DNA of 64,000 bases, taken from Paraspadella gotoi (lineage: Eukaryota > Animalia > Chaetognatha). Every line of letters begins with the position of its first letter. Within the stretch, counting starts at the first letter, position 1. The stretch is from the NCBI GenBank assembly GCA_051294375.1, contig JBJCIZ010000239.1, positions 2,865,476-2,929,475 of the forward strand. Direction: 5' to 3'. Of the stretch, positions 1 through 62,500 are shown piece by piece. Under the pieces are notes generated by a model. The model saw only the letters and a program-made list of their open reading frames with translations. It made no database searches and was not told the DNA's origin. Position numbers and translations under genes: made by a program.

Positions 1-2407
1 GCTTTTTTAAAGGAGGTCATGTCGGTGAAAGTGACGAAGGATCGCTCGCACGAATGTTCGGGAAGAAGCTTTTTTCTGTTCTGCTTTTTGACTTCCTTGT
101 TGTTGGAATCGGATTTGTCGGTGGATGAGGAGGAGGAGGATTCGCTGACGAGATCCGACGGCGGAGGGACTGAGTTTTCTAGAGAATCCTTTTCGAAAAA
201 AATAAATCAAAATATATAAGAGAAAAAATAAGCAACTAATAAAACAAAAACACATAAGCTGAAAAATCACAATGCAGCGGTGAGAGCGACTTTACCTCTA
301 ACTCGACGATCGGCATCGTGGTGCTGTGGAATAGAATTTGAGGTCCGGTTCTAATGAGTTTGCTGAACCTCGCCGCCTTCTTCTTTTCCATCTCCAACTT
401 TTGAAACTCGTGAAGGGAGAGGAGGTTCTAGAGAAAGAGTTGTTAGAGACAATGTATTCCGAGGAGAAGAAGAGAAAGGTGCAAAGTCGCTCAAGGAAAG
501 GCAAGACTCGAACCTGTTTCTCCGTTTCCTTGGCCTCCTCGAGCAACTCTTCCTGCGTGAGTCTCCGCACGGCGGCGACGTTCTTCCGCGACGCCATCTC
601 CGCCATCATCTTCTTCCGAATTTCATCCTCTTTCTTCCGCCGATCGGATTCCGCGGATTTCAGAGACGTCGTCGCTCTGTCATATATATATTAAGAGAGT
701 GGTCTTTTCATACAATTGAAACATTCTTTGAAACATTATACCACTTCATTGATAGGGAAGCCAGGTACTCTGGGAGTGAATAAACGAGACTGAGAAAGAG
801 TCTTTATTGAAAGCTTGAAGGGACCTGCTATGTCATTATGTAAGAGTGATGGAGGCCTTAAACAACCAAAGCCTGTCTAAAGTCAGGGGCAAGATAGCTT
901 ATTTATCAAATGAATGGATATTTTTTATATTGGTTTTACAATTTTCATATCAAAAAAACACAAAACAAAAAAATTAAATTAGGTTAAATGAAAGTTAATC
1001 GAAAAATATCGGGATTAAGGAAATCTTGGTACTCCAACCCGGCCGTCGCTTCCTTCAGCAACTCGGAATACCAGTAAACGTCTTCTTTGCTTACAACTCA
1101 ACTCTTGAATTTACCACGACATAAATGATAGTTGATAAATCAAAGTCAATCAACCAATGAATAAATCGTTGAATGAGTAAAGGACTTCAAAATCAAAAAA
1201 CAAATTACTATTTAGACTTCGAAGTTGGAGACAGAGAGAGTCAGATTCCCCCGACTCAACGATGACAAGGTTCGGAAAAGAAAAATTTAAAGCCGCGGAA
1301 CATCGGGTCTTATAACCTGACTTTGGTCCTCGGGGGTGCGTCGGCGTCGTTCTTTGCTCCTTCCACGCCCACTTCCGCTTTCCTCTTTCGCCGCGCCGGC
1401 GCTCTTTTCGGCTCCGCTTTCGTCCCCTTCGGCTCCGGCGCCGATCGCCCGCCCTTCTTCGGCGTCTCCTTTCTTTTCTTTTTGTCCTTAATCTCTTTCC
1501 TTTTCGGCTCTTTGTAGGCCTGGAGCCGGATAGAAGTGTAAATATGTATAAGAGAGGAACTTTTGATTTATAGGAAAATGAAATTGAGCTCCTCAATCTA
1601 ATTTGCATACAGTCGTTTTGGAAGTCAACTCAAATTCACAACTGATGTTAATTTGTGGTGATATATTGCAGACATTGTTTTAATTTTTTTTCGTTGCATT
1701 AAATGAGAAAATTGTGTTTTGTTTTCAGACAACGAAAATTTATTATTATTATTAATTTATACATTTATATAAATTATACTACAAAACGGACATGTTTCGG
1801 CTATAATGTTAGCCTTCATTTTGCGCTGATGAAGGCTAACATTATAGACGAAATATGTCCGTTTTTTATTATTAATAATAATAATTAATTTTCGTTGTCT
1901 GAAAATAAGACACAATTTTCTAATTTAAAGGCGATAAATTGCGAATTTACGCCGGTCAAAGTGCTAATAAACAAAATCATAATATAGAGATTCATGTTTA
2001 TTCATGATCATAAATCGGCCTCTCGACAAAGACGGCGACGCAGCGCTGCGCGAGGAAATACCTTGGTGTAGACTCCGCCGGTGGGCGCTCTCCTTTTCTC
2101 TTCGTCCTCGCCCTCATCGATCTCGGCCTCACCTTCCGCGTTCTCGTCGATGTCGAAGTCGGAATCGACTCGATCCGAATCGGAGTCTTCCGATTGATAA
2201 TCCTGCGCGAAAAGAGAGAATCTCCGAGTTAACAAAACTGATCATCTTACTCCCCGCGATTCCAACTCGGGTTCGGCCCACCCCGTCGTCCTCCACTTCT
2301 TCGAATCCACCGTAGGTCGTTTTGTAAAACTCGTCCTCTTCCTCCTCGTTGAGAAGACGCGCCATTTTGGAGCCGGCGTTCTCGCGACGCTCACGCACCG
2401 CCGCCAT
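1..2407 (-). CDS. VPS72: VPS72/YL1 (H2A.Z chaperone, SRCAP/TIP60 subunit); multi-exon, 3' end runs off the window
   Basis: Spliced translation MAAVRERRENAGSKMARLLNEEEEDEFYKTTYGGFEE..DYQSEDSDSDRVDSDFDIDE..TK|AYKEP..LTQEELLEEAKETEKQ|NLLSL..GPQILFHSTTMP..CERSFVTFTD matches YL1 family motifs. Exons approx 2407-2282, 2202-2062, 1519-1317, 676-514, 428-297, 188-<1. Confidence 0.93.
692..950. repeat. Dispersed ~250-bp intronic repeat, family A, copy 1
   Basis: Shares CACTTCATTGATAGGGAAG..GAATAAACGAGACTGAGA..GATGGAGGCCTTAA..AAAGCCTGTC.AAAGTC.GGG.CAAGATAGCTTATTTAT.AAATGAATGGAT with 26146-26353, 38429-38678 and 60013-60195. Confidence 0.9.
1576..1609. repeat. Short hairpin repeat, family B, copy 1 (degenerate)
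   Basis: AAATGAAATTGAGCTCCTCAATCTAATTTGCATA; related to AAATGAGATTGAGTTC(C/T)TCAATCTCATTT at 52868 and 61590. Confidence 0.75.
1699..1928. mobile_element. Long imperfect palindrome carrying a Penelope-type minimal hammerhead motif (inverted pseudo-LTR relic)
   Basis: Arms AGAAAATTGTG..TTTTCAGACAACGAAAAT..AAAACGGACATGTTTCGGCTATAATGTTAGCCTTCA and TGAAGGCTAACATTATAGACGAAATATGTCCGTTTT..ATTTTCGTTGTCTGAAAA..CACAATTTTCT. The right arm has CTGATGA(1826-1832)..GAAA(1850-1853)..GTC(1857-1859). Confidence 0.7.
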
Positions 2408-5400
2408 TTTGATTTTTTTTTCTTCAAGTTTTAAAATAAAAAGGTTGTTGATGGCCTTTTCACGGACAAAAATAACTGTTTCCTATTGAATCGTTCTGGA
2501 AGGTCAAAAGCATTTTATATTAATAGATCGGTCTCGACAACTGTTGTATTTAGTATATAAAAAACAAAAATAAAAGCTATTTACAATCTGTCAATACGAA
2601 AGCAAAAAAAAAAAAACACAAAAAAAAACACAAATTAGTTTAATCATAAGCCAATTTTATTTAAAAAGAAAATCACGATACAAAGGCATTGTAATTGTAT
2701 TACTAAAAACAAATAAATTAAAAAATATATTTTTAACAACCAAGAGCAACCGAGAAACAAGTAACCTCAATACGAGCCGCGATAACACATCAAAATTATC
2801 ATTTTTTAAAATATTTTGAATTGTTTTCCATAATTATATAGGTAAATCTCCAAACAATAAAAATCCTCACAATCATAATTTTAATATTAAACTATTTGTT
2901 AACACGTATAATATAGGAATAATATCAGTGTGGTCCTCTTTACATTTTAATATGCATAATTTTAACTATAATCGTCAAACGCTCCTCTATTTGAATATTA
3001 TTATTAGAATCAGTTTTTTGCCTAAAATTGAATTGAAAGACCATATCCTTTAAAGTGGATCAATCATTTATTTCATATGAATTTTTGTGACGAACTAATC
3101 TTTGTTAAAAACTGAACTAGATTTTTGAAATCGAGGCTTGTATAAAAATCACACGTCACTTTAGCATTCAGTAATTTCTTTACTAAACTCGACAGCGGGC
3201 ATCGGACGATAAATTCAGATTGGTTATAATAATATTTTTTGTCAAATACCAAAAACACAAAAAATATTCCCACGATCCCATTAGCAAAAGAAAGATTTGG
3301 TGGGTGGATTTGTATACACTGAGGAGAAAAGGCGCGCTCCGCATGCACACAATGAGCGGGCGTAAACTAAGCTGTACACTAAGGCGCAGTGAAAATAGCC
3401 AAATTTTATGTAATCGACATTTGAAAATCACAAAAAATTTTTACCTTTAAATATAATTTCATTGTAGGTAAAACGTGTATTTGACTAGTGACTACAATAT
3501 TTTCACGCGAATGGCAATTTCATTTCAAATTCAAATCTAGCGGTTTAATTTTAAAGTTTTTAAACTATTTTACTATATATAAAATGGCAAACTATTATAA
3601 AAGCCATAAAGTTCACGTGGTAGAATATTTTTTATGATAAATTTCAAACCTTGATATGAATTTCACGAGGCGCTATGGTGCACAAAGCCCAAAAAATCTT
3701 TAGTACATTACCTGTACAAAAGGTTCTGATAACAAGCATGAAGCGAGACAAACGTTCAGCCGAATTAGAACAAGGCATAGAGAAGCTGTTGAAACCGCCT
3801 TAATAGACCCATATTTTTAAAATTTTATTATCATATTGAGAACTGCGAAAACAAACTAATAGATGTCCCTAAAAAATATTCGAACACAAAAAAACTGCAA
3901 TCTAGTATAACTATATATATGTATAGAAGATAGATTTATTAAGTTCGCCACTCTCGATTGCGCAAGGGGATCAAAGCGGCGAGATAGCTCACACAGTGTA
4001 TTAAGTACCGTTTTCGAGCCTTTGTAAGATTAATTTATGAAAAACATGATTTGTATTTTTTTTAAATGAAACTTAACTAAATATTTCATACGAAGTTGAA
4101 AAAAAGTAAAAATTTCAAGAAAAAATATTAAGAATAAGGCAGGAAATGATATACTGGCGTGGAAAATGATCATAAACCAAAAAATATATTAAAGGACATA
4201 TCTATTGTTTTGTTTAAAAATTAATGCCGACATTTTAAAATATTTGTGGCGAAGGGCGAAAAACCAAGGACCAAATTTATCCAGTTCTCAGAAATAGAGG
4301 GTTAACGCATTATACTATATTAATATATTATATTATATAATGTTCCGACAACCGGTTCTTTGCCGCACGACCCAGGCATCAACAAGCGAACCCGCCATTG
4401 ACGAATGTATTAACCGGAACTGAACAGAAATAAAAGATGGTACATGCTGATAATGTTGCCTAGCAAGTTCAATTTTTATCTCACAGCTAGAATTAAAGGC
4501 GTCATTGAATGAACGGAAAGCAAAATAAAGCTTTTTACCCAAAAGTTCCCTCACAGTAAACGGTTTAGAATTGGTATTGAAATAAACTTCAATTAGGAAT
4601 TGTGAAATACGGTGAAATATGGAATATAATGATTAGTGAATAACGGTAGCAAATTATGATTCATGAAAGGTAGCTAGTGGACGATTAATGATAGCTAAAT
4701 ACCGATCAACATATTATCAGGAGCTTCCCTTTAACATAGTAATCTCTGTACCCTCAATCATTTTCATGCCATATTTCATTTATTACCGAAATGGCATTCC
4801 CTGTAAAATAATAATTTTTTTCGCGTTTTACTTTTCACAGGTGAAGATTAAATTTATACCATACAGTAAATTTAGTTACCCTAAAAAACAATATGCAAAT
4901 GAGACGCATAACGGTAAACCAAAAAATAATTCAACCTTCCTTAGTTTCAATTGCTGTATTAAACAAACAAATATTTGAATTACAGCAAAAAGCTCAATTA
5001 TATCTTGGGAGCACTGACTCGAAAAATTCACAAATACTTAATTTCATATCACAAAATTATTAAAAAACTTTCAAAAGTTTAGCAAACTTAGTTGCACGCC
5101 TTCCGGGAAAAAAGCTTAGTGTGAAATTTCTCTTCATGTGATAGCGATTGATTTGATGATGATTGACTTGGTGAGAGAAGGCGCTGCTGATTTTCGAGAG
5201 CCTCATTTATGTAAAAAAATTCTTTCTTTGATGACAAATTACTTACGTGTAAACTCGACGCATCACTGATATGGTTATATTGCTGCGAACAAAAAAAGTT
5301 ATGACTATGGACGAAAAATGCTTACGATATATAGCATAAATACGACGTAAGGTGGTAGCTGTAAAGCACCTCCCCATTATCGCGAGTTAAGGAATGGACG

Positions 5401-5428
5401 TTATTTGTTGCGAATTAAAAAAAAAAAA

Positions 5429-11398
<5,970 letters not shown>

Positions 11399-24039: not shown

Positions 24040-24972
24040 AACAAGTTCCAGAGGAAGAATGTGATGATTATTAACAATTACCAAGTACGTGCGATTGGAT
24101 GACAGTAAGTCAAAACTAGGTCTGTTAAAGCACTTAATGCAGGGTCAAACAAAAAAAACCTTTTCATAGTCGGAAGGAAATAAAATTGTAAGAAAAATAA
24201 TTCCGACCTACGACTAAGTCGTTTATACAGATTGATTCAACACATCCGTTTCGATGAAACTTTCACTACCGAAAATCAAAGATAAAATTAAGCTAACGGC
24301 TGGAAGGTCAATCAATGGAACAATATTAATATTAAGACCAATCTAATATTACGACTCCTCCCAACAAAAATCTTAAGCAAAGCTTGCGTGATGTCGAGGT
24401 CACGCTGCATATTTTGGGAACGGGTTAAAAACATCACAGACGGTCTTTAAAAAGGATAAACGAAGAATGCACATTACACGGAGTAGAGGGCGAGTGATGC
24501 GGTAATAAATTTTTAGTATTCGTATCCAGCTTAGGAAAGGACATCTTCATTCGACATTCAATGTAATGAACCATGCTAAACTGCTTGAAAGCTTGACATG
24601 CCAACCACGAGGTAATACTTTCTATTAAATACATCAAATGACNNNNNNNNNNAACAAGTTCCAGAGGGAAGAAATGTGATGATTATTAACAATTACCAAG
24701 TACGTGCGATTGGATGACAGTAAGTCAAAACTAGGTCTGTTAAAGCACTTAATGCAGGGTCAAACAAAAAAAACCTTTTCATAGTCGGAAGGAAATAGAA
24801 TTGTAAGAAAAATAATTCCGACCTACGACTAAGTCGTTTATACAGATTGATTCAACACATCCGTTTCGATGAAACTTTCACTACCGAAAATCAAAGATAA
24901 AATTAAGCTAACGGCTGGAAGGTCAATCAATGGAACAATATTAATATTAAGAACCAATCTAANNNNNNNNNN
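24040..24972. other. Assembly overlap: 24040-24346 is repeated at 24653-24962, between N-gaps (24643-24652, 24963-24972)
   Basis: Near-identical copies differing mainly in homopolymer length (GAGGAAGAATG vs GAGGGAAGAAATG; AAGACC vs AAGAACC). Confidence 0.85.
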
Positions 24973-25267: not shown

Positions 25268-26936
25268 CTATTTCCCGGGAACGTTTAGACGCAGATCCGT
25301 GAAGCCAACAGTGAGCCTCAAGGCTTTATTCTCAATTATGCTTCGGAGATATGTGATGGACGATTTTTGCTTTTCGTCCGTAATAGAGAGATCTTCGTAA
25401 AGTTGTTTTAAACCGACTCGTTGAGCCGCGTCAACCTGCGGTTTTATCCAAAATGAAAAAAAAAAGTAATAAAAATTAACCAACTAAAAAATTTAAAGCT
25501 CTTTTTCCCCCCTTTATTCTTTATTTAACTGACATTGAATTTGGCGTCTGCTTCCGCCTTGGCGGAGATGTAAGCCGCTTCGGCCGTGGCGTTCTTCCGG
25601 ATTTCGCTGGCTTCGTTCTGAATGTTTCGGACGTGCATCTCCGTCATTTTACGGACGACGGCCGTCTCCTGAACGAACTTCTCCTTTTCGCTGTCCAGTT
25701 GCCGCGTTAACGTGAGGAGGTATCTTTTCTGTACGTCTTGTGGGATTTTTACGTCGCCGAGTTGGAAGTACCTGGACGAGAGAATTAACTAAAACTATTA
25801 CGTAATCGCTAACAAGATAAACAAAAAAAAAAAAGAAGCGAATCAACGCCCGAGGTTTTCGAACCTGACGGTGGAGAAGAGGCCCTTATCGGCCTTCGTA
25901 CAATTCACTCGGGGCGAGATGCAATCCTCGAGACATTGGAAGATCTTCTCGTCGCAGAGAGGCTCGCAGCAATAGCCGCTGAACCTTTTTCGCAAAGCGG
26001 TGAAGATCTTTTGTTCGATTTCGGGACGTCGATCGATGAACTCCCGAGTGGAATACATGGTCACCGCCCCCTGTGGGAAAAGAAAAAATCTCACGAAGCG
26101 GAAAATTTGAAAAAAAAAAAAAAAAAAAAAAAATAATAATAATAACTTTGAAATATTATACCACTTCATTGATAGGGAATGAATAAACGAGACTGTGAGA
26201 GAGTCTTGATTGAAAGCTTGCAGGGACCTGCTATGTCATTATCTTGTAAAAGTGATGGAGGCCTTAAACCACCAAAGCCTGTCCAAAGTCAGGGGCAAGA
26301 TAGCTTATTTATCAAATGAATGGATTATTTTTATATTGTACCAATTTCATAAAAGACGCCGCCGTTTTTTGGTCACCTTGACAACGTCTTTGGCCGTTTG
26401 TTTAAAAACGTCCTCGTAAAATATATCGTATTCGGAATGCAACTCGGCCAAATCGTCTTTGTTGAGGAAGTATTGGATATTGACGGTTATTGTCACTTCC
26501 AGCTTGTCCCTGCGAATGTATTGAAAGTTATTGTACACGTTTCGAAAAATAATAAGAACCAAAGTAAAAAAAGTGATCACCATCAACAAACCTGGTAAAT
26601 ATTTCTATGTCGCGAAGTGAAACTATATGAGCAGTCGCCATGAACGTTTTGAAATACTTATCCGGACCCACCATATGTCGCCCGCTCTCGTAAACGACTG
26701 AAGTGTCCACCGACCCCGTCGATCGGGACTTGACGAAGCCATACTATGAGAAAAGTCAGAAGAGTCATTAATAGATTTAATATCGAAAAATAACAACGTA
26801 AAGTATATATAGGTATTTAATTTACTTCGTAGTAATTAACGTCGGCGAAACTGGACGCTAAAAGGATGATAGTGCCAATGAGTAAGACAACAACAACCGC
26901 GATTCCGCACTTGGTCTGCGCAGAAGTTTCACCCAT
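25268..26936 (-). CDS. SPFH/band-7 domain membrane protein; multi-exon, possible N-terminal extension from exon 27454-27168
   Basis: TM helix GIAVVVVLLIGTIILLASSF, then VYESGRHMVGPDKYFKTF, TRDKLEVTITVNIQYFL, YSTREFIDRRPEIEQKI, RYFQLGDVKIP and an Ala-rich coiled coil NATAEAAYISAKAEADAK. Confidence 0.8.
26146..26353. repeat. Dispersed repeat family A, copy 2
   Basis: Aligns with 692-950 with an internal deletion; fills most of an SPFH-gene intron. Confidence 0.9.
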
Positions 26937-28091: not shown

Positions 28092-28877
28092 TCAGGAGAG
28101 GGCGGCGAACTTGGGCATCTTGTCGCCGGAAAGGACGCGCCTCTCGACGCCTCCCGCCTTGATGGAGGCGAGGCGGATGAGGCCGCCCGAGGATCCATCC
28201 CGCGACATGGCCAGGCTGAGGGTGTTGGCGCAGAAGTCGAGGCACTGCTGCTCCGTCATGCCTTCCTTGAAGGTGGCGTCCACGTAGCCGTAAACGTAAG
28301 TGGAACCTGATCCTCCGATGGCGAAAGGCTGACGAACGCACATCCCGCCAATGGGAACGGAATAGACTTGACCTGTGAACAATTTGAACAATTTGAACAA
28401 TTTGAACAATTTGAAGCCCCGGCGTTTATTTTTTTTTTGTCTATCTTTTTTGCTCTCTCACTCTCTCGCTTTCTCGCTCTCACCCCCATGCTTGCGATCC
28501 CAGCCGGCGACGATGATGCCCGCAGTGAGGGAATCCCGATAGTTGTAACACATTTCCCTGAAGATAGAGGCGGCCGTCTTGACCAGCGCAGGCTCGCCGG
28601 TCTGCACCTCGTAAAAGCTAAGATGGTACTTGACCACGTCGGCGATAGCTTGGGTGTCCGCCGCCGAGCCGGACCGACAACAATAGATGTTGTCGGTGAT
28701 GGGAGTGAGTTTGTCGGTGACTCGATTGGCGATGTAGGCACCCGTCGTTGTGCGGCTGTCGGCCCCGATGACGACGCCATCGGCGTACTCGACCGCCATG
28801 ATGGAAGTGCCGGTGGAATGCTCTTTGGTCATCCACTCGGGGCCGGAAGGAGCCATCATCGTCGCGGAAAAAGACAT
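28092..28877 (-). CDS. PSMB6: Proteasome subunit beta type-6 (beta1), 2 exons
   Basis: Propeptide ..HSTG|[74 protein letters not shown]. Intron approx 28373-28483. Confidence 0.96.
28376..28414. repeat. 9-bp tandem repeat (TGAACAATT)x4 at the 3' end of the PSMB6 intron
   Basis: Directly visible. Confidence 0.9.
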
Positions 28878-36000: not shown

Positions 36001-38959
36001 TCGGAATCTCGCGGACCCGAAGTTTGAGGAAGATGGGAATTGTTGTTTTCGTTTTCGGGCTCCGCCCACTGAGGCAGGAATTAGAAAGAGAAGTAAACTT
36101 GATTGATTAATTACTTATTTAATAATAATAATAATCTTTATGAAAACTTAATCATTACAACACTCAACAATAAGAAACCTCGAGAGTGACGTCGAACTGT
36201 CGAAAGGCTTCTTGAATCTCACGGAGGAAGTGATATTGATCGGGAAAAACGGGGAGGTCCTCTGGAATGTTGACGGATCTTTGATCGATGTCCACGAAGC
36301 ACATGGAAGCTTCTTGAGGCAAATCTTGCAAGGGTCCTCGGTCGTCATCGTGCAATCCGTCCCCCTATCGACGAAATGCGGGGTTTTTTTGCGACATTAT
36401 TTCGGAAGAGTTTCGTGACTAAGAATCCTCGCATCTCACAACCCCACTTACTGAGGGCAAGTATGTTTAAATCAAACCTTTTTATGTCCCCTCAATCCCA
36501 TGATGAAAGGAACGGGAGCGTCGAGAAAATGATGAAGCGATGCGGGAAGTATAGGGACGTAGACGTGTTGCCATGTGAACGGGAACAACAATGCGCAGAT
36601 TCCTGAAGAATTACTCATTAGTAATCCGATGCACTTTCAGAGAAACCAGAAATCATCAGAATTGACTTACCTTCGGCTACCAGCATGAGTCGTTGGTAAT
36701 CAGTTGAATGAAGAAGAATTTGTGTCTCTAAGCAGGCGCACGTAAATAGCTGATGCAAGAGTTATATTTTGGTGCTTGTTTAATATGAAATTGGTACAAC
36801 CAATATATTTTTTTTCTAAACTTGACCCTACTACGTACATTTAAAACTATTTATAAAGTGGTTAAACGAAGGTATATATTTCATGATCCATTGAAACCAT
36901 TGAAAATATAATTCGATGACAATGACTTACTTGGACTAGATTCTCCATGCCGAGCATAAGGAACAACTGTGTAAATGATAAGTCAAAAAGCGGCAACTCG
37001 GCCGAGCTGGGCCTTTGGCAAAAAATGGGTTTGGTAACGGAAAAGAATTTCATGGATCTCCCTGGAGGCGGTAGCGGAACCTGGTAGGGGGGGATATATT
37101 GGGCTATAGAATTAAGACAAAATATTCCCGTTTTACTTTATCAAAATTTTGATAGACTTGCCTCAAATAAAGCGTTATAAACGTAAGACTCGATGGGGAG
37201 TTTAGGGGGAGCGTCGTTGAGGATGGACGAGTGAATTTGTTCTAGGATGGAGCGACAGGCGTTGAAAAAAGGGAGTTGAGTGATAAGGCAAATGGTTTTA
37301 GTAACGAAGAGTTTGTCAGATTTTGCGTCGTATTCGATCAAACTGTCCTCGAGATGGCCTGTGGAAATAAAAAGGTTAACTTTGTTAATCCTAATAAAGT
37401 TGGTTTTTACCGACTGTGGTTTTTACAAGAGCGCTATTAATAGTGCCCACCCAGCAATTTTCCCACGTCGTAGAGATCGGAGTCGACATCTCGCGCGGGT
37501 TCACTTTCCGCGCCACTGGGCCGCCGACTTCGCCGACACAGCGTCGGCGGCGGAGTCCGTTCGTTGAAAGGATCGATGTTGTAGTAAAGCGTTTTGCTTT
37601 GACTGTTCGCCAATTCCGCCAGGTGCATAGCGTGCAACGTTTGCATTGCAGCGCAGATGGACCGATCGCGCACCTCCTGAGCAATGAAAAAAACGACAAT
37701 CAATGACATCACGTATATCAATCGGTGGGTGGTACTGGTAGGTTACGAGTTTTTAAATGGATTTGAACTTTTTACATAATACATTTATATATATATTATA
37801 TAACCTCTAACGCTAGGTAATTGAAAATTAGTAGTAGCATAAAAAAAAGTAATCCAATGTCCGCCTTACCTCGTAAAAAGTGATGGTGCTGCCATAAATC
37901 CTGGATCCATCCTCTTTGGTGATGAGAAACGTGTGAAAGAATGTAAAGTCTTTGTCTCGAGGCTTCGGCGACACTGAGGGCGAGTAAATTCGATCCGTGG
38001 TGAAGGACAAACCTCTGGGACAGCAGAGGAGGGCGACGCTTTTCGCGTCGAATGGGTTGTTGGGGACGCTGAAAAAAAAATTAATACGTGGCTGAAAAAG
38101 CTTCTGTTATGGTGGACTAAAATCCACCAACCGTTCATCAGCGGCCATTGGTGCCGGAGGCAAGTCATTCGCCTCCCAACCCAAAGGTCCGGGGTTCTAG
38201 CCCGGTGGTCGTCTGGCAGTTAAGAGGGACGGGGCGCTTAACCCGCCTGTAACATGGTGTTACAGCCTGATCCGAAGCTCAGGGACTGCTTATATTGAAC
38301 GGTTCTGTCATTAACACTTATAGCTTATTTATTAAGTGAAAGTTTTATATTGGACCAATTTCATAAAATTCAGCTCCTTGTGTTTTGATGCTGGGTGGAG
38401 CACAATATTGTATTGCCTATCTAATACTTAAGGGAGTGGTCTTTTCTTTTGAAACTTTCACTTCATTGATAGGGAAGCTAGGCAGTCTGAGAGTGAATAA
38501 ACGAGACTGAGAGAGTCGTGATTAAAAGCTTTTTTGTTCCTTACATTGCTATTTCATTATCTTGTAAGACTAACAGTGAAGGAGGCCTTAATCCACTAAA
38601 GCCTGTCCAAAGTCGGGGACAAGATAGCTTATTTATTAAATGAATGGATAAGTTTTATATTGGTTGTACCAATTTCATTTTATATAATAATAATAATATA
38701 ATGGGCTCTCTAAAGCCGTCCACTAAAACAGTCACCGCAACGATCTCTCTCCAGATTTTAAGTACCTCTCGGGAAAGTGATTGAGGACGGCACATTTGTA
38801 AGGTCTGGAGAGCGGCGCCACGTGGAGGTTGTCCCCGCTGAGCGTGTCGGGTTCGAGGCCGGAGGAGAGGTCGAGGCCGACAACGGCGAAATAGTCGGCG
38901 AAGCGGGCCGACGCGCCCGACGTCGTCGCTCCGCCACCGTCTCCGCAAGTCGCCGTCAT
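30088..38959 (-). CDS. DENND5: DENND5/Rab6IP1 (DENN, RUN, PLAT, RUN); about 20 exons, one apparent frameshift near 32085, N-gap 34749-34772
   Basis: [152 protein letters not shown]. Confidence 0.95.
37081..37161 (-). other. GC-AG intron in DENND5
   Basis: GAG|GCAAGT...TACCAG|GTT joins YNALFE to [12 protein letters not shown]. Confidence 0.8.
38141..38212 (+). mobile_element. tRNA-derived (SINE-like) head with Pol III A/B boxes
   Basis: Acceptor-like stem GCGGCCAT/GTGGTCGT, A-box-like TGGTGCCGGAGG, loop CT-CCC-AA (Gly-like) on a degenerate anticodon stem, T-arm CCGGG-GTTCTAG-CCCGG with B-box-like GGTTCTAGCCC. Confidence 0.7.
38216..38289 (+). ncRNA. Twister ribozyme-like fold, P5 permutation
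   Basis: P5 GCAGT/ACTGC; GA-CGG; U^AA at 38239-38241; short P2; GC; P3 CTGTAAC/GTTACAG; P4 CCTGA/TCAGG closing loop TCCGAAGC. Pseudoknots CCG:CGG and GC:GC are both complementary. Confidence 0.75.
38429..38678. repeat. Dispersed repeat family A, copy 3
   Basis: Aligns with 692-950 from TAAG.GAGTGGTCTTTTC to TATATTGGTTGTACCAATTTCAT. Confidence 0.9.
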
Positions 38960-59566: not shown

Positions 59567-62500
59567 CTACAGCACGGGCGCGGAAGGATAGATGCTGTCG
59601 TGGTGGCTGCCGTGGCTGGACATGTGCCCATATGGTGGCGGCGGGGTCCGACTTCCGCTGAAGGAATGAAGAGGCGGAGTGCCGCTCGACCCCGGCGGTC
59701 CCATCGGATGTTCACTGAAAAATACCATTTTTTTAAAGACTACTACAAAATTAATATTATATGAAATTGGCACAACCAATATATATTTTATATTTTATTA
59801 TATAATATAAATAAAAATAAACAAAAATGGAAAAAAAAAAACGCGAAAATGTTTTCAGCTCAAGTCAAGCAAAAGTCAAGCTCTAAATTCGAATAGAGCT
59901 GTTCATTTGTTCCAAGTCGCAACGACCGGCAATGACATCGGCAAGAGCGCAAATGGACAGAAAGCAAGAACTCGAGTCGTATTCAAATTGAACTGTCTCA
60001 CTCGTTGGTTAATTTTCATACAATTGAGACATTCTTTGAAATATTACATCACTTCATTGTTAGGGAAGTCAGGTACTCCGGGAGTGAATAAGCGAGTCTG
60101 TGAGAGAGTCTTACGCCATGTCATGTCCTATGTCATTATCTTGTAAGTGCGATGGAGGACTTATCTCACAAATGCCTGTCCAAAGTCATCCATTCATTTA
60201 TTAAATTTTCTTATAATTGTTACATTGGATGTACCAATTGCGTAAGAAAATTCTTATGAAATTGGGTACAACCAATATAAAAATTATTATTATTATATTA
60301 TTCTAATTAAAAGCCACTAGCGATTGATAAACGTTACCGATGATATCAGCCGGTAAAAGCCGTTTACCTGTAAGTTGGATTAGAAGCGGCGGCGGCGGCC
60401 GCTCCCCTGCTACTCGCGCCGGCGCTTTCGTTGAGGCTGACGTCGGCGACGGTCGTGTGAGACTTGTGTCCGCGAGCCCGATTGTGCGGCGGCGGCGGCG
60501 GCTCCGGCGAGTCGTTCCGAGTCTCGTAACGTCGGGACATGTAATGAGGTCCTGAGAAATCCAGGCATTTTTATACAAAAAAAAAAAAAAAACCCTTTGC
60601 CCTTCGCCCCCCCCCACACCCCCTCAAAACCGGGCCGACCTGTGGTGTAATTGTTGACGGCGAGAAAAGGGTCGTTCTCGTGATCTTCGAGGCCCTCGAG
60701 ATTTCCCGAGTCGCCGAAAGTCTTCCAAGCGCAAGAGGCGATGAGCGCTAGGAACGTGAGGCTCAGGCCCAACGCGGACGCTCCTGAAAACGGAATCGGG
60801 GGGAAAATCGAAATTTAAAATCTTTCTGGTCGAAATTAATATCAATTAATGATTCGAATAAAATGGAAAACTCTGTATTGCGGGCGCGGAGAAAATCAGC
60901 CGTTACATTAGTAAAATGTGTCAACCGAAATGAGATAAAAAATTATTGCGAAAGAGTTATATTATATGAGAAGGAGAATTATAGTAAAAAAAACATTTAA
61001 AAATGATAAAAAGGTAATGATTACCCTTACCGAGCAAAACGAGAGAGACTCCATTGAGTCCAGTGTAACATAAACCGTGGAGAGCGTCGAGAAGGAGATG
61101 CTTATTGCTCTGACATTCGAGAAGAGAGTTAAGCCCGAGGGCGGCCGCCGACGAGGACTCCAGCTCCATTCTTTGAGAGATGGCGTTGACGAGAGGCGGA
61201 ATTTTGCGTCGATCCGAACCCGAGGTCATGTACTGCGCGACCTGAACCCAGAAAGAAGGCGCAAAGCACGGCTCAAGATTCTCTTCTCCCATTTTTTTTT
61301 TCAGCGGGAAACGCCTAATATGACCCCTACCCTTTGGCGCAGATCCTCCATCGCCAGTCGGGCGTCGTGCAGTGACGACGTGACGGTTTGAATCGCGCGC
61401 GCGTAGCGATCCGACGCCGGGACTTCGTCGCCCGACGTTTTCGTCGATGAGCAGTTGAGAAGATAGTGGAATCGATTGTAGTGGGATTCGTGGTAGAATC
61501 CTCCGTAGTCGCGGATGAAAGCTGAAAACAAAATAAAAATAAAAATAAAAATAAAAAGAGATGTAGCAGATTAATTTGTGAATTGTCTGAAATGAGATTG
61601 AGTTCCTCAATCTCATTTGCATATTGTCGTATTCTGAAATAAGATCCTCTTTTTCGAGAAAAAAAATTTCCGATCGTCGAAAGGAAAAAAACCAACTTTT
61701 GGGATCGAAACATAAGTCGGCCACGCCCACTCCGACGCCGAGATATCCGCTGACGATCGTCCAGGCCAGGACGAGGGTGATGGTGGCCAGCGCCGCAAAA
61801 AGGAAGAGGCAGCACTTGGAGCGCCTCGCCAAGCCAATCACGAGCAGGAGAACCACGAAAGTGGTCCAGGAAAAGAAGGCGGCGGTGGAGAGCCACCGAA
61901 AGTCCTCGCCGGATCGTGTGTAAGCCATGTAAACGTTCACTGATTCGCGCTCTCTGAAGAAAAAAAAATGATAAAAAATAAAAAATAACAAAAATTATTA
62001 TTTAAGTATAATCTTAAGGCATCTCTTTTCATGCCTTATTTCCAGTGACAGGTGCTGATCGAGTTTGCCCAACTCTTTCTGTCCCGTCCTTAGATCCTTC
62101 TTCATTCTGGCAAGGAGATCTTTCATTCGCTTACGTTCTTCGCGCGGAGCTCGAGTACTGGGATTAAAACAAAAATATTTCATTTATAATTATTTTAATC
62201 AAAACCCACAAAAACGTCAGAAAAGAGTACCCGTCTATCTGATCAAAGAGGTCCTGAATGGCTTTATTGGCTTCTCCTTTGTTGATATTGTTGTTCAGTT
62301 CCCTGACGCTGCCTTTGGCTTTGTAGGCGCGGAATCCCAAATCGCGCACGGAGACAAGAAATTGACGAGTTCCGTCGTTGGCTACCTCGTTACCATAGAG
62401 ACCGGTTCCGATAAACAAAACGCAGACGAATATAAAAGCTGAAAAATAAAAAAAAGTTGCCCTTGGATTTTGTCGTTTTATTCTACACGAATTAAACATT

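Follow-up and report, generated by a model that had tools for sequence, protein, structure and literature searches.

A multicopy tRNA-like element of Paraspadella gotoi carrying a minimal, palindromic-stem twister fold, a candidate retrozyme predicted to cleave as a dimer

The window analysed here is a stretch of 64,000 nucleotides (nt) of the chaetognath Paraspadella gotoi (contig JBJCIZ010000239.1, positions 2,865,476 to 2,929,475), and the subject is a short repeat on its + strand in which a transfer RNA (tRNA)-like module is followed by a fold of the twister ribozyme type. The window holds a single copy of this repeat, called family A below. Together with an adjoining tandem of a sister repeat, family B, it lies antisense inside a GT-AG intron (38069-38765) of a gene on the minus strand. 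A downstream exon of this gene matches the Pfam DENN domain and a weak RUN match falls below the cutoff, so that the placement in "DENND5 intron 1" by an earlier reading of the sequence, hereafter the first-pass annotation, was a fair inference. The limits of family A were drawn from public contigs aligned to 38041-38400, for which four of the twelve listed runs were used; X1, X5 and X9 denote three studies, X1 being possibly the source of the window itself and X5 and X9 coming from others. The features of the locus are the following.

38069..38765, minus strand: intron of a DENN-domain gene (DENND5-like), from GT-AG splice sites, Pfam DENN and a weak RUN match.
38108..38317, plus strand: family A element, window copy, from a step in contig depth and loose ends at both edges in X1, X5 and X9.
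38110..38129, plus strand: 5' hairpin, before the tRNA-like module, of 7 base pairs (bp) and a loop of 6 nt (pair probabilities 0.86-1.0).
38129..38137, plus strand: 5' arm of a 9-bp internal inverted repeat (arms match exactly).
38141..38212, plus strand: degenerate tRNA-like module, with an A-box-like stretch (38149-60), a Gly(CCC)-like loop (38173-79) and a B-box-like stretch (38193-203).
38216..38289, plus strand: P5-type twister fold, with P5 (38216-20/38285-89), P2 (38226-27/38242-43 plus A.C) and GA (38228-29).
Twister core, continued, plus strand: pseudoknots T1 (38230-32/38272-74) and T2 (38245-46/38277-78), P3 (38247-65, 7 bp) and P4 (38266-70/38279-83).
Twister loop and cut-site letters, plus strand: L4 (38271-78), UAA (38239-41, read U^AA), CCC (38242-44) and GC (38245-46).
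38233..38238, plus strand: P1, GGCGCU, 6 nt, self-complementary, a predicted intermolecular helix from its self-duplex energy.
38239..38240, plus strand: predicted scissile U^A bond, from its position in the twister consensus; a cut here would, as proposed by the first-pass annotation, release a 5' product of ~99 nt.
38296..38304, plus strand: 3' arm of the 9-bp internal inverted repeat (exact match).

Family A is a real element, namely a high-copy, dispersed, non-coding repeat. In X1 the unique flank has a summed depth of 98.6, against 1.3-2.9 million over 38113-38316, and the same block stands out in X5 and X9. Summed depth is itself not a copy number; the rough bounds are 600-29,000 copies, and the first depth bin gives 2,200-8,800. 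At the 5' side, contigs have loose ends before 38107 and 38108, respectively, in 113 and 120 cases in X1, 48 and 50 in X5, and 22 and 25 in X9, and in all three studies the 5' flanks are mixed and AT-rich. The 3' loose ends cluster behind 38317/38321 in X1, X5 and X9 and agree on about 24 further nt ending in CTCTTCA, a tail that the window copy lacks. From the sharp 5' end and the additional tail, the unit therefore measures about 235 bp and is made up, in this order, of the 5' hairpin, the first arm of the inverted repeat, the tRNA-like module, the twister, the other arm and the tail, with the tRNA-like part internal. The mobile, multicopy, retrozyme-like or short interspersed nuclear element (SINE)-like character proposed by the first-pass annotation is borne out by these sharp common ends and high depth in three studies. 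Its coordinates all agree with the letters and all the pairs that it named are Watson-Crick, whereas the start and end that it gave to the unit had to be revised. The start of the family lies 33 bp upstream of the supposed tRNA head and 41 bp before the A box, and its end is the tail that is absent here; the element is hence not "tRNA-headed". One low-depth contig from another organism (X10) was not taken as evidence of spread. Likewise, X9, which may derive from RNA, covers the element but not 38077-38100, and this was not taken as evidence of expression.

Variants present in at least 3% of family A are few: CpG transitions, two acceptor-stem changes, C38155A in the A box, one linker base, two P3-loop bases and G38274A. 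None falls in P1, P2, UAA or the 5' side of T2. The variants within 38133-38274 are mostly CpG transitions, though the observed/expected CpG of the window is 1.35, and this excess suggests methylation targeted to repeats. The whole window copy (38108-38317) folds at a z of -3.69.

The two boxes of the tRNA-like module, called with the A- and B-box consensus, are 44 nt apart, as in a tRNA, in a degenerate form with a closed acceptor-like stem, and the family variants T38209C and T38212C convert acceptor-stem G-U pairs to G-C. A descriptor of tRNA landmarks, tuned after the sequence had been viewed, matched once in the window and in none of 1546 shuffles. No tRNA was found by ARAGORN or by Rfam (4.5 kb searched at E 1 and 231 nt at E 10), and the module is therefore regarded as a degenerate tRNA derivative. 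Neither a BLAST search of phages with the module nor one of plasmids with the copy returned more than chance matches. The module is likely an internal promoter for RNA polymerase III (Pol III). The window copy is devoid of any run of four T; the TTTT at 38343-46, previously read as its terminator, belongs to a 3' piece of family B. Family A resembles a tRNA-derived SINE in having A and B boxes at tRNA spacing but differs in that its tRNA-like part is not 5'-terminal; its 3' end is fixed and not a poly(A) tract. Given the geometry of Pol III promoters, a 5' end lying 41 bp before the A box is hard to obtain by simple SINE copying and fits the copying of a circle or multimer.

All elements of the P5-type twister fold described by the first-pass annotation were found in place. 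Family A shows the L4 pattern U-NNN-A-A-NN with both pseudoknots, T1 (3 bp) and T2 (2 bp), and keeps the conserved GA before T1 and the UAA at the cut site. A strict twister descriptor matched once in the window and in none of 578 first-order Markov shuffles, while a loose one gave 0.125 matches per shuffled window. The same Rfam searches gave no hammerhead match in family A, and inspection by eye revealed no hammerhead, hepatitis delta virus (HDV)-like, hairpin or hatchet core in its leader or tail. Six nucleotides are too few for P1 to form an intramolecular stem, so that it pairs only between two copies. GGCGCU forms a self-duplex of -8.3 kcal/mol; among 6-mers, self-complementarity occurs in 5.3% and equal stability in 0.5%.

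The sister family shows a P5-type twister as well, again with a palindromic P1 of 6 nt. Family B copies lie at 691-949, 26146-26354, 38428-38678 and about 60010-60240, together with several short 3' fragments, and the features used here are as follows.

26146..26354, plus strand: family B copy in which the P5-type twister (26251-26293) is intact, P1 palindrome at 26259-64 and predicted cut at 26265/26266, from an Rfam match.
691..949, plus strand: family B copy in which the twister has decayed (damage in both T1 and P2) but the P1 palindrome is intact, from repeat comparison and descriptor.
38320..38678, plus strand: partial head-to-tail tandem of family B, period 304 bp, abutting element A and holding the TTTT at 38343.
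About 38575-38617, plus strand: decayed family B twister within this tandem, P1 palindrome (38583-88) intact.

Rfam Twister-P5 matches the family B copy at 25.8 bits (E 0.0015), below the gathering cutoff of 37.6; the covariance-model match anticipated for these elements was thus obtained, below cutoff, for this copy and not for the window copy of family A. When the pseudoknots were left free to vary, a general descriptor found two sites in the window, the twister of A and that of B at 26251-26293, both with a self-complementary P1 of 6 nt, and the same descriptor found six sites in 1050 shuffles, none with such a P1. The palindromes differ, GGCGCU in A and AGGCCU in B, the latter type being intact in three of four B copies. 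Compensatory changes separate the families: of 11 pairs, four differ in both partners, namely one pair in each of P2, T1, the centre of P1 and T2. The alignment comprised three B copies and A, leaving out the most decayed B copy as well as P4, where it is shifted; four double-changed pairs were reached in 3 of 500 shuffles, and slid controls gave 0-1. Family B is also the better bench candidate. A chance resemblance to a twister, for which the missing Rfam match of the window copy could be invoked, is close to negligible, being largely refuted by the empty shuffles, by the Rfam match of family B and by the compensatory changes.

Family B shares with A the 5' hairpin and the enclosure of the twister domain by an inverted repeat, which is long in B; it contains no B-box motif and no tRNA module. 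Its copies share a fixed 3' end after a small hairpin, show variable 5' truncation and are flanked by AT microsatellites. The spacer of the 38320-38678 tandem is itself multicopy, as contigs continue through it. At 38317-38320 the tail of A is replaced, with almost no gap, by a 3' piece of B, and both families end in TTCA; this junction reflects either insertion of B into the AT-rich tail of A or template switching by a shared enzyme. All five twister-bearing copies (starting at 691, 26146, 38108, 38428 and 60010) are on the plus strand and nearby open reading frames on the minus strand, and 3' fragments of B devoid of a twister occur on both strands (36804, 59791 and 60287 on the minus strand; 35058 and 44514 on the plus strand). 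This bias may stem from selection against sense ribozymes in pre-mRNA or from the AATAAA of B. At 60010-60290, a decayed B copy on the plus strand and a short B 3' fragment on the minus strand stand tail to tail, about 16 bp apart.

Such ends and repeats could also belong to a non-autonomous DNA element of the Helentron/HINE kind, having subterminal inverted repeats and a terminal hairpin and carrying the tRNA-twister cassette as cargo. Both ends of A are indeed fixed, an internal inverted repeat and a hairpin at one end are present, the sites are AT-rich, and some 37 nt separate the 3' arm from the 3' end, near the 38-60 bp of mite HINEs (PMC4067079). Those elements, however, have repeats of 12-15 bp, the 5' one 2-4 nt from the end, whereas that of A measures 9 bp and lies 21 nt inward (PMC4067079). 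Moreover, no T run follows the 3' end, and of the two or more T that such elements carry at either end, no TT occurs in the consensus of the 3' loose ends and a 5' TT is seen in about half of the listed contigs; family B combines variable 5' truncation with a fixed 3' end; and a conserved dimer ribozyme is nothing that a DNA element would require. Overall, we consider this explanation very unlikely.

P2 consists of 2 bp plus A.C in both A and B, and was called unusually short by the first-pass annotation. In a review, P2 of twisters is given as four pairs, with length changes that might disturb the active site (PMC5408937). Viral contigs were scanned with exact core patterns and a structure filter, an approach that detects motifs with canonical letters. 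In the P1 strand order, 123 of the 128 listed loci with a 4-nt P2 (about 190 in all) passed the filter, and the 3-nt pattern gave 18 loci. In the P5 order, 81 of 95 distinct matches with a 3-nt P2 passed, against 29 of 46 distinct matches with a 4-nt P2. Many compensated P2 sequences occur in the 3-nt P5-type set, four of the 81 having two pairs. A 3-nt P2 thus appears normal for P5-type twisters, being the majority form among the viral examples (81 against 29 distinct). These 3-bp-P2 twisters are common in viral contigs (L268-L349), often with several per contig (L291, L307, L330, L332 and L341), while the Rfam P5 model carries a 4-bp P2, unlike them. An association of short P2 with long P4 was dropped, as it was confounded by permutation type and absence of P3. 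Two phage-like contigs each hold two head-to-tail twister-P1-like motifs (L071:129-228 and L107:110-209), at 37-42 bits each.

The length of P1 behaves differently from that of P2. The P1 region spans 14-32 nt in 81/81 natural P5-type examples with a 3-nt P2 in viral contigs, and the sole 6-nt P1 of the 4-nt set is the seam between two tandem P1-type motifs. Patterns specific to the two families found no locus in the viral contigs. No convincing short-P1 twister was present among 77 pattern matches in prokaryotic genomes, of which six distinct ones had a P4 of at least 3 bp and none a full P2; in a further pattern scan, 3 of 120 loci passed the structure filter. A metagenome match (L001) was discarded as a chance match inside a protein-coding stretch.

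The 6-nt P1 proposed to serve dimer formation is backed by the different palindrome of family B and by the compensatory change at its centre, which together make an intermolecular P1 plausible. The self-duplexes are predicted at -8.3 kcal/mol for A and -9.1 kcal/mol for B, the helix fitting without any shift between one strand's T1 and the scissile U of the other strand. For family B, the unconstrained two-strand optimum is a swapped twister dimer with P5, P2, P1 and P4 formed, at -42.3 kcal/mol against -32.0 kcal/mol for two monomers. For family A, the swapped dimer (-48.7 kcal/mol) beats two twister-shaped monomers (-37.0 kcal/mol).

Several observations weigh against a dimer-dependent twister in family A. 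The Rfam searches returned no twister match for it. A half-model built from 38 viral twisters scores it at E 4.5, rank 6/6, a weak score of limited weight given the pattern-selected training set; it also touches 26265-26294 in family B. The pair closing P4 is A-U in A against G-C in B, and this G-C pair is reported as essentially invariant in twisters (PMC5408937). G38274A, the sole core variant of at least 3%, breaks T1 and amounts to 11% of depth in X1, 2% in X5 and 4% in X9. The A/B covariation, as far as the sequences go, is in effect a comparison of two families (four sequences), with the structure drawn from the same sequences. In folding, the monomer of A is predicted to form a competing hairpin (38230-33/38242-45, probability about 0.99) that hides T1 and T2, and the swapped dimer loses to two misfolded monomers (-59.0 kcal/mol) and to a P3-paired two-strand fold (-70.2 kcal/mol). 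Finally, P1 can be deleted with a near wild-type cleavage rate according to the same review (PMC5408937), and tandem master loci for family A may exist but are so far indicated by one listed joint with unread letters between.

The misfold and the missing covariance-model match would suit a twister that is a dead or near-dead relic trapped in the competing hairpin, family A then being spread like a SINE, independently of its ribozyme, as the passenger of some reverse transcriptase, Penelope-like or other. This would be in line with the finding that a Penelope-like protein carries out insertion in vitro without requiring hammerhead cleavage (PMC11167929). Nevertheless, A keeps every catalytic and pseudoknot position, with changes compensated relative to B, and the energy model used for A leaves out both pseudoknots and Mg2+. 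A relic is accordingly judged unlikely. Alternatively, the twister could act as a P1-less monomer, its palindrome being inherited and not needed, and cut the transcript 27 nt behind the tRNA-like module. Besides the dispensability of P1 in vitro, the T-variants of Schistosoma mansoni, which have variable or no P1, speak for this (Liu et al., 2021, PMC8501958), though P1-less twister cleavage is called inefficient in the same source. Against it, P1 is exactly six nt long and self-complementary in both families, although both letters of its central pair differ between them. An efficient monomer would also split its own template, yet the ends lie at 38107/38108 and 38240 is absent among the loose ends listed. 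We hold this reading to be rather unlikely.

Taken together, family A is likely a non-autonomous retroelement of the retrozyme or Sm-alpha type with a minimal twister predicted to depend on dimer formation; the full mechanism is given a probability of about 0.6. In this mechanism, transcription of head-to-tail loci by Pol III would begin at the internal tRNA-like boxes and run on into the following unit, read-through being proposed because the window copy lacks four consecutive T. Neighbouring units would then complete a ribozyme together, one contributing its 5' half and the one that follows its 3' half, joined by a common 6-bp P1 helix. Cleavage at the U^A of successive units would free a unit-length RNA bearing a 5'-OH and a cyclic phosphate, a substrate that a ligase of the RtcB type could circularise. 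Reverse transcription by a borrowed enzyme, probably a Penelope-like one, would begin at the tail and go round roughly once, explaining why dispersed copies hold 33 bp that precede any Pol III start. Isolated copies, that of the window included, would mostly be uncut dead ends. A head-to-tail joint of A (38315 to 38108) occurs in one contig of X1 and two of X9 among the joints listed, with undefined intervening letters; family B provides a partial tandem, and contigs cannot count arrays. By analogy, a Penelope-like enzyme would be the likeliest mobilising partner: such enzymes are described as starting inside the template, preferring AT-rich DNA and leaving partial tandems (PMC11167929 and PMC8557442). 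The partial tandem and common 3' end of family B in AT-rich DNA are like those of Penelope-like elements. No such partner was found in the sequences covered, and one supplement file of PMC8557442 held no informative motif match to these elements.

Comparable systems are known. According to Weinberg et al. (2019, PMC6765202), the ribozyme of the schistosome SINE-like hammerhead retroposons Sm-alpha/Sj-alpha stands behind a promoter of the Pol III type; once multimers are cleaved, this promoter is found 3'-terminally in each unit, tandem copies are required and lone ones are dead ends. Family A shares the order of promoter-like module and ribozyme and, in the proposed model, the dead-end single copies; it differs in having a twister instead of a hammerhead, a minimal palindromic P1, and a sister family devoid of a tRNA module. 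The combination of a tRNA-type promoter with a ribozyme is thus known from these hammerhead elements; the first-pass annotation knew of no description of the exact architecture, and its twister version was not found in the material covered. Metazoan retrozymes of the non-LTR kind, which lack long terminal repeats, are reported as dispersed monomers of 170-400 nt that encode no protein, with circularisation by RtcB and a proposed Penelope-like origin (PMC7229834; preprint 10.64898/2026.07.22.740005). Families A (about 235 bp) and B (304 bp) are likewise non-coding and multicopy, but both carry a twister fold in place of the type I hammerhead that defines non-LTR retrozymes. Amphibian retrozyme ribozymes have a weak palindromic stem and cleave better as dimers (Cervera and de la Pena, 2020, PMC7229834; Li et al., 2026). 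Among hammerheads, the precedents thus include a short stem III that is palindromic and cleavage in the dimeric state (PMC7229834 and PMC6765202). In minimal dimeric hammerheads of Penelope-like elements, a palindromic stem by the cut site, too short alone, is completed by a second copy (PMC6765202); here the ribozyme class is another one and the swapped helix would be twister P1. With Twister-P5 (Rfam RF02684), A shares strand order, L4, both pseudoknots and UAA, but natural examples have the longer P1 given above instead of a 6-nt palindrome. T-variants of Perere-3 carry a twister at the 5' end of a long interspersed nuclear element (LINE), with P1 partly derived from the target site (PMC8501958); they too place a twister in an animal retroelement, whereas here it is internal and P1 is a fixed palindrome. 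Theta ribozymes, HDV-like and found in phages, cut next to real tRNAs (Kienbeck et al., 2024, PMC10879173); here also a small ribozyme lies beside a tRNA, but the tRNA module is decayed and the predicted cut is 27 nt downstream.

The literature covered, mostly titles and abstract openings of work outside subscription journals (the first reports on twisters and on dimeric hammerheads thus lying beyond its scope), contained no tRNA-twister SINE and no palindromic dimeric twister, and in it the palindromic-stem dimer arrangement was found described only for hammerhead ribozymes. What appears new is an element of the retrozyme/Sm-alpha kind in which a twister replaces the hammerhead, with a dimer design that the family comparison supports at the sequence level. 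If so, the solution of a short palindromic stem that cleaves as a dimer would have evolved again in a second ribozyme class. It would provide a natural obligate-dimer twister, testable with a 70-nt construct, and a biological role for eukaryotic twisters, whose functions remain largely unknown. Cleavage would in effect count copies, firing in tandem transcripts to yield unit circles while sparing single copies. In addition, these data suggest that retrozyme surveys limited to hammerheads, together with Rfam cutoffs, under-count such elements. We see about even odds that A and B represent a class of animal retrozymes built on minimal twisters active only as domain-swapped dimers, with at least two families in one genome, one of them having captured a tRNA-type promoter, a class missed by standard models and maybe widespread.

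Elsewhere in the window, 24040-24346 and 24653-24962 form a 310-bp direct duplication with 98.7% identity. An alpha-2-macroglobulin RAP gene is also present, and a short tandem coding-like repeat (28092-28457) lies within an apparent intron of a proteasome beta-type gene.

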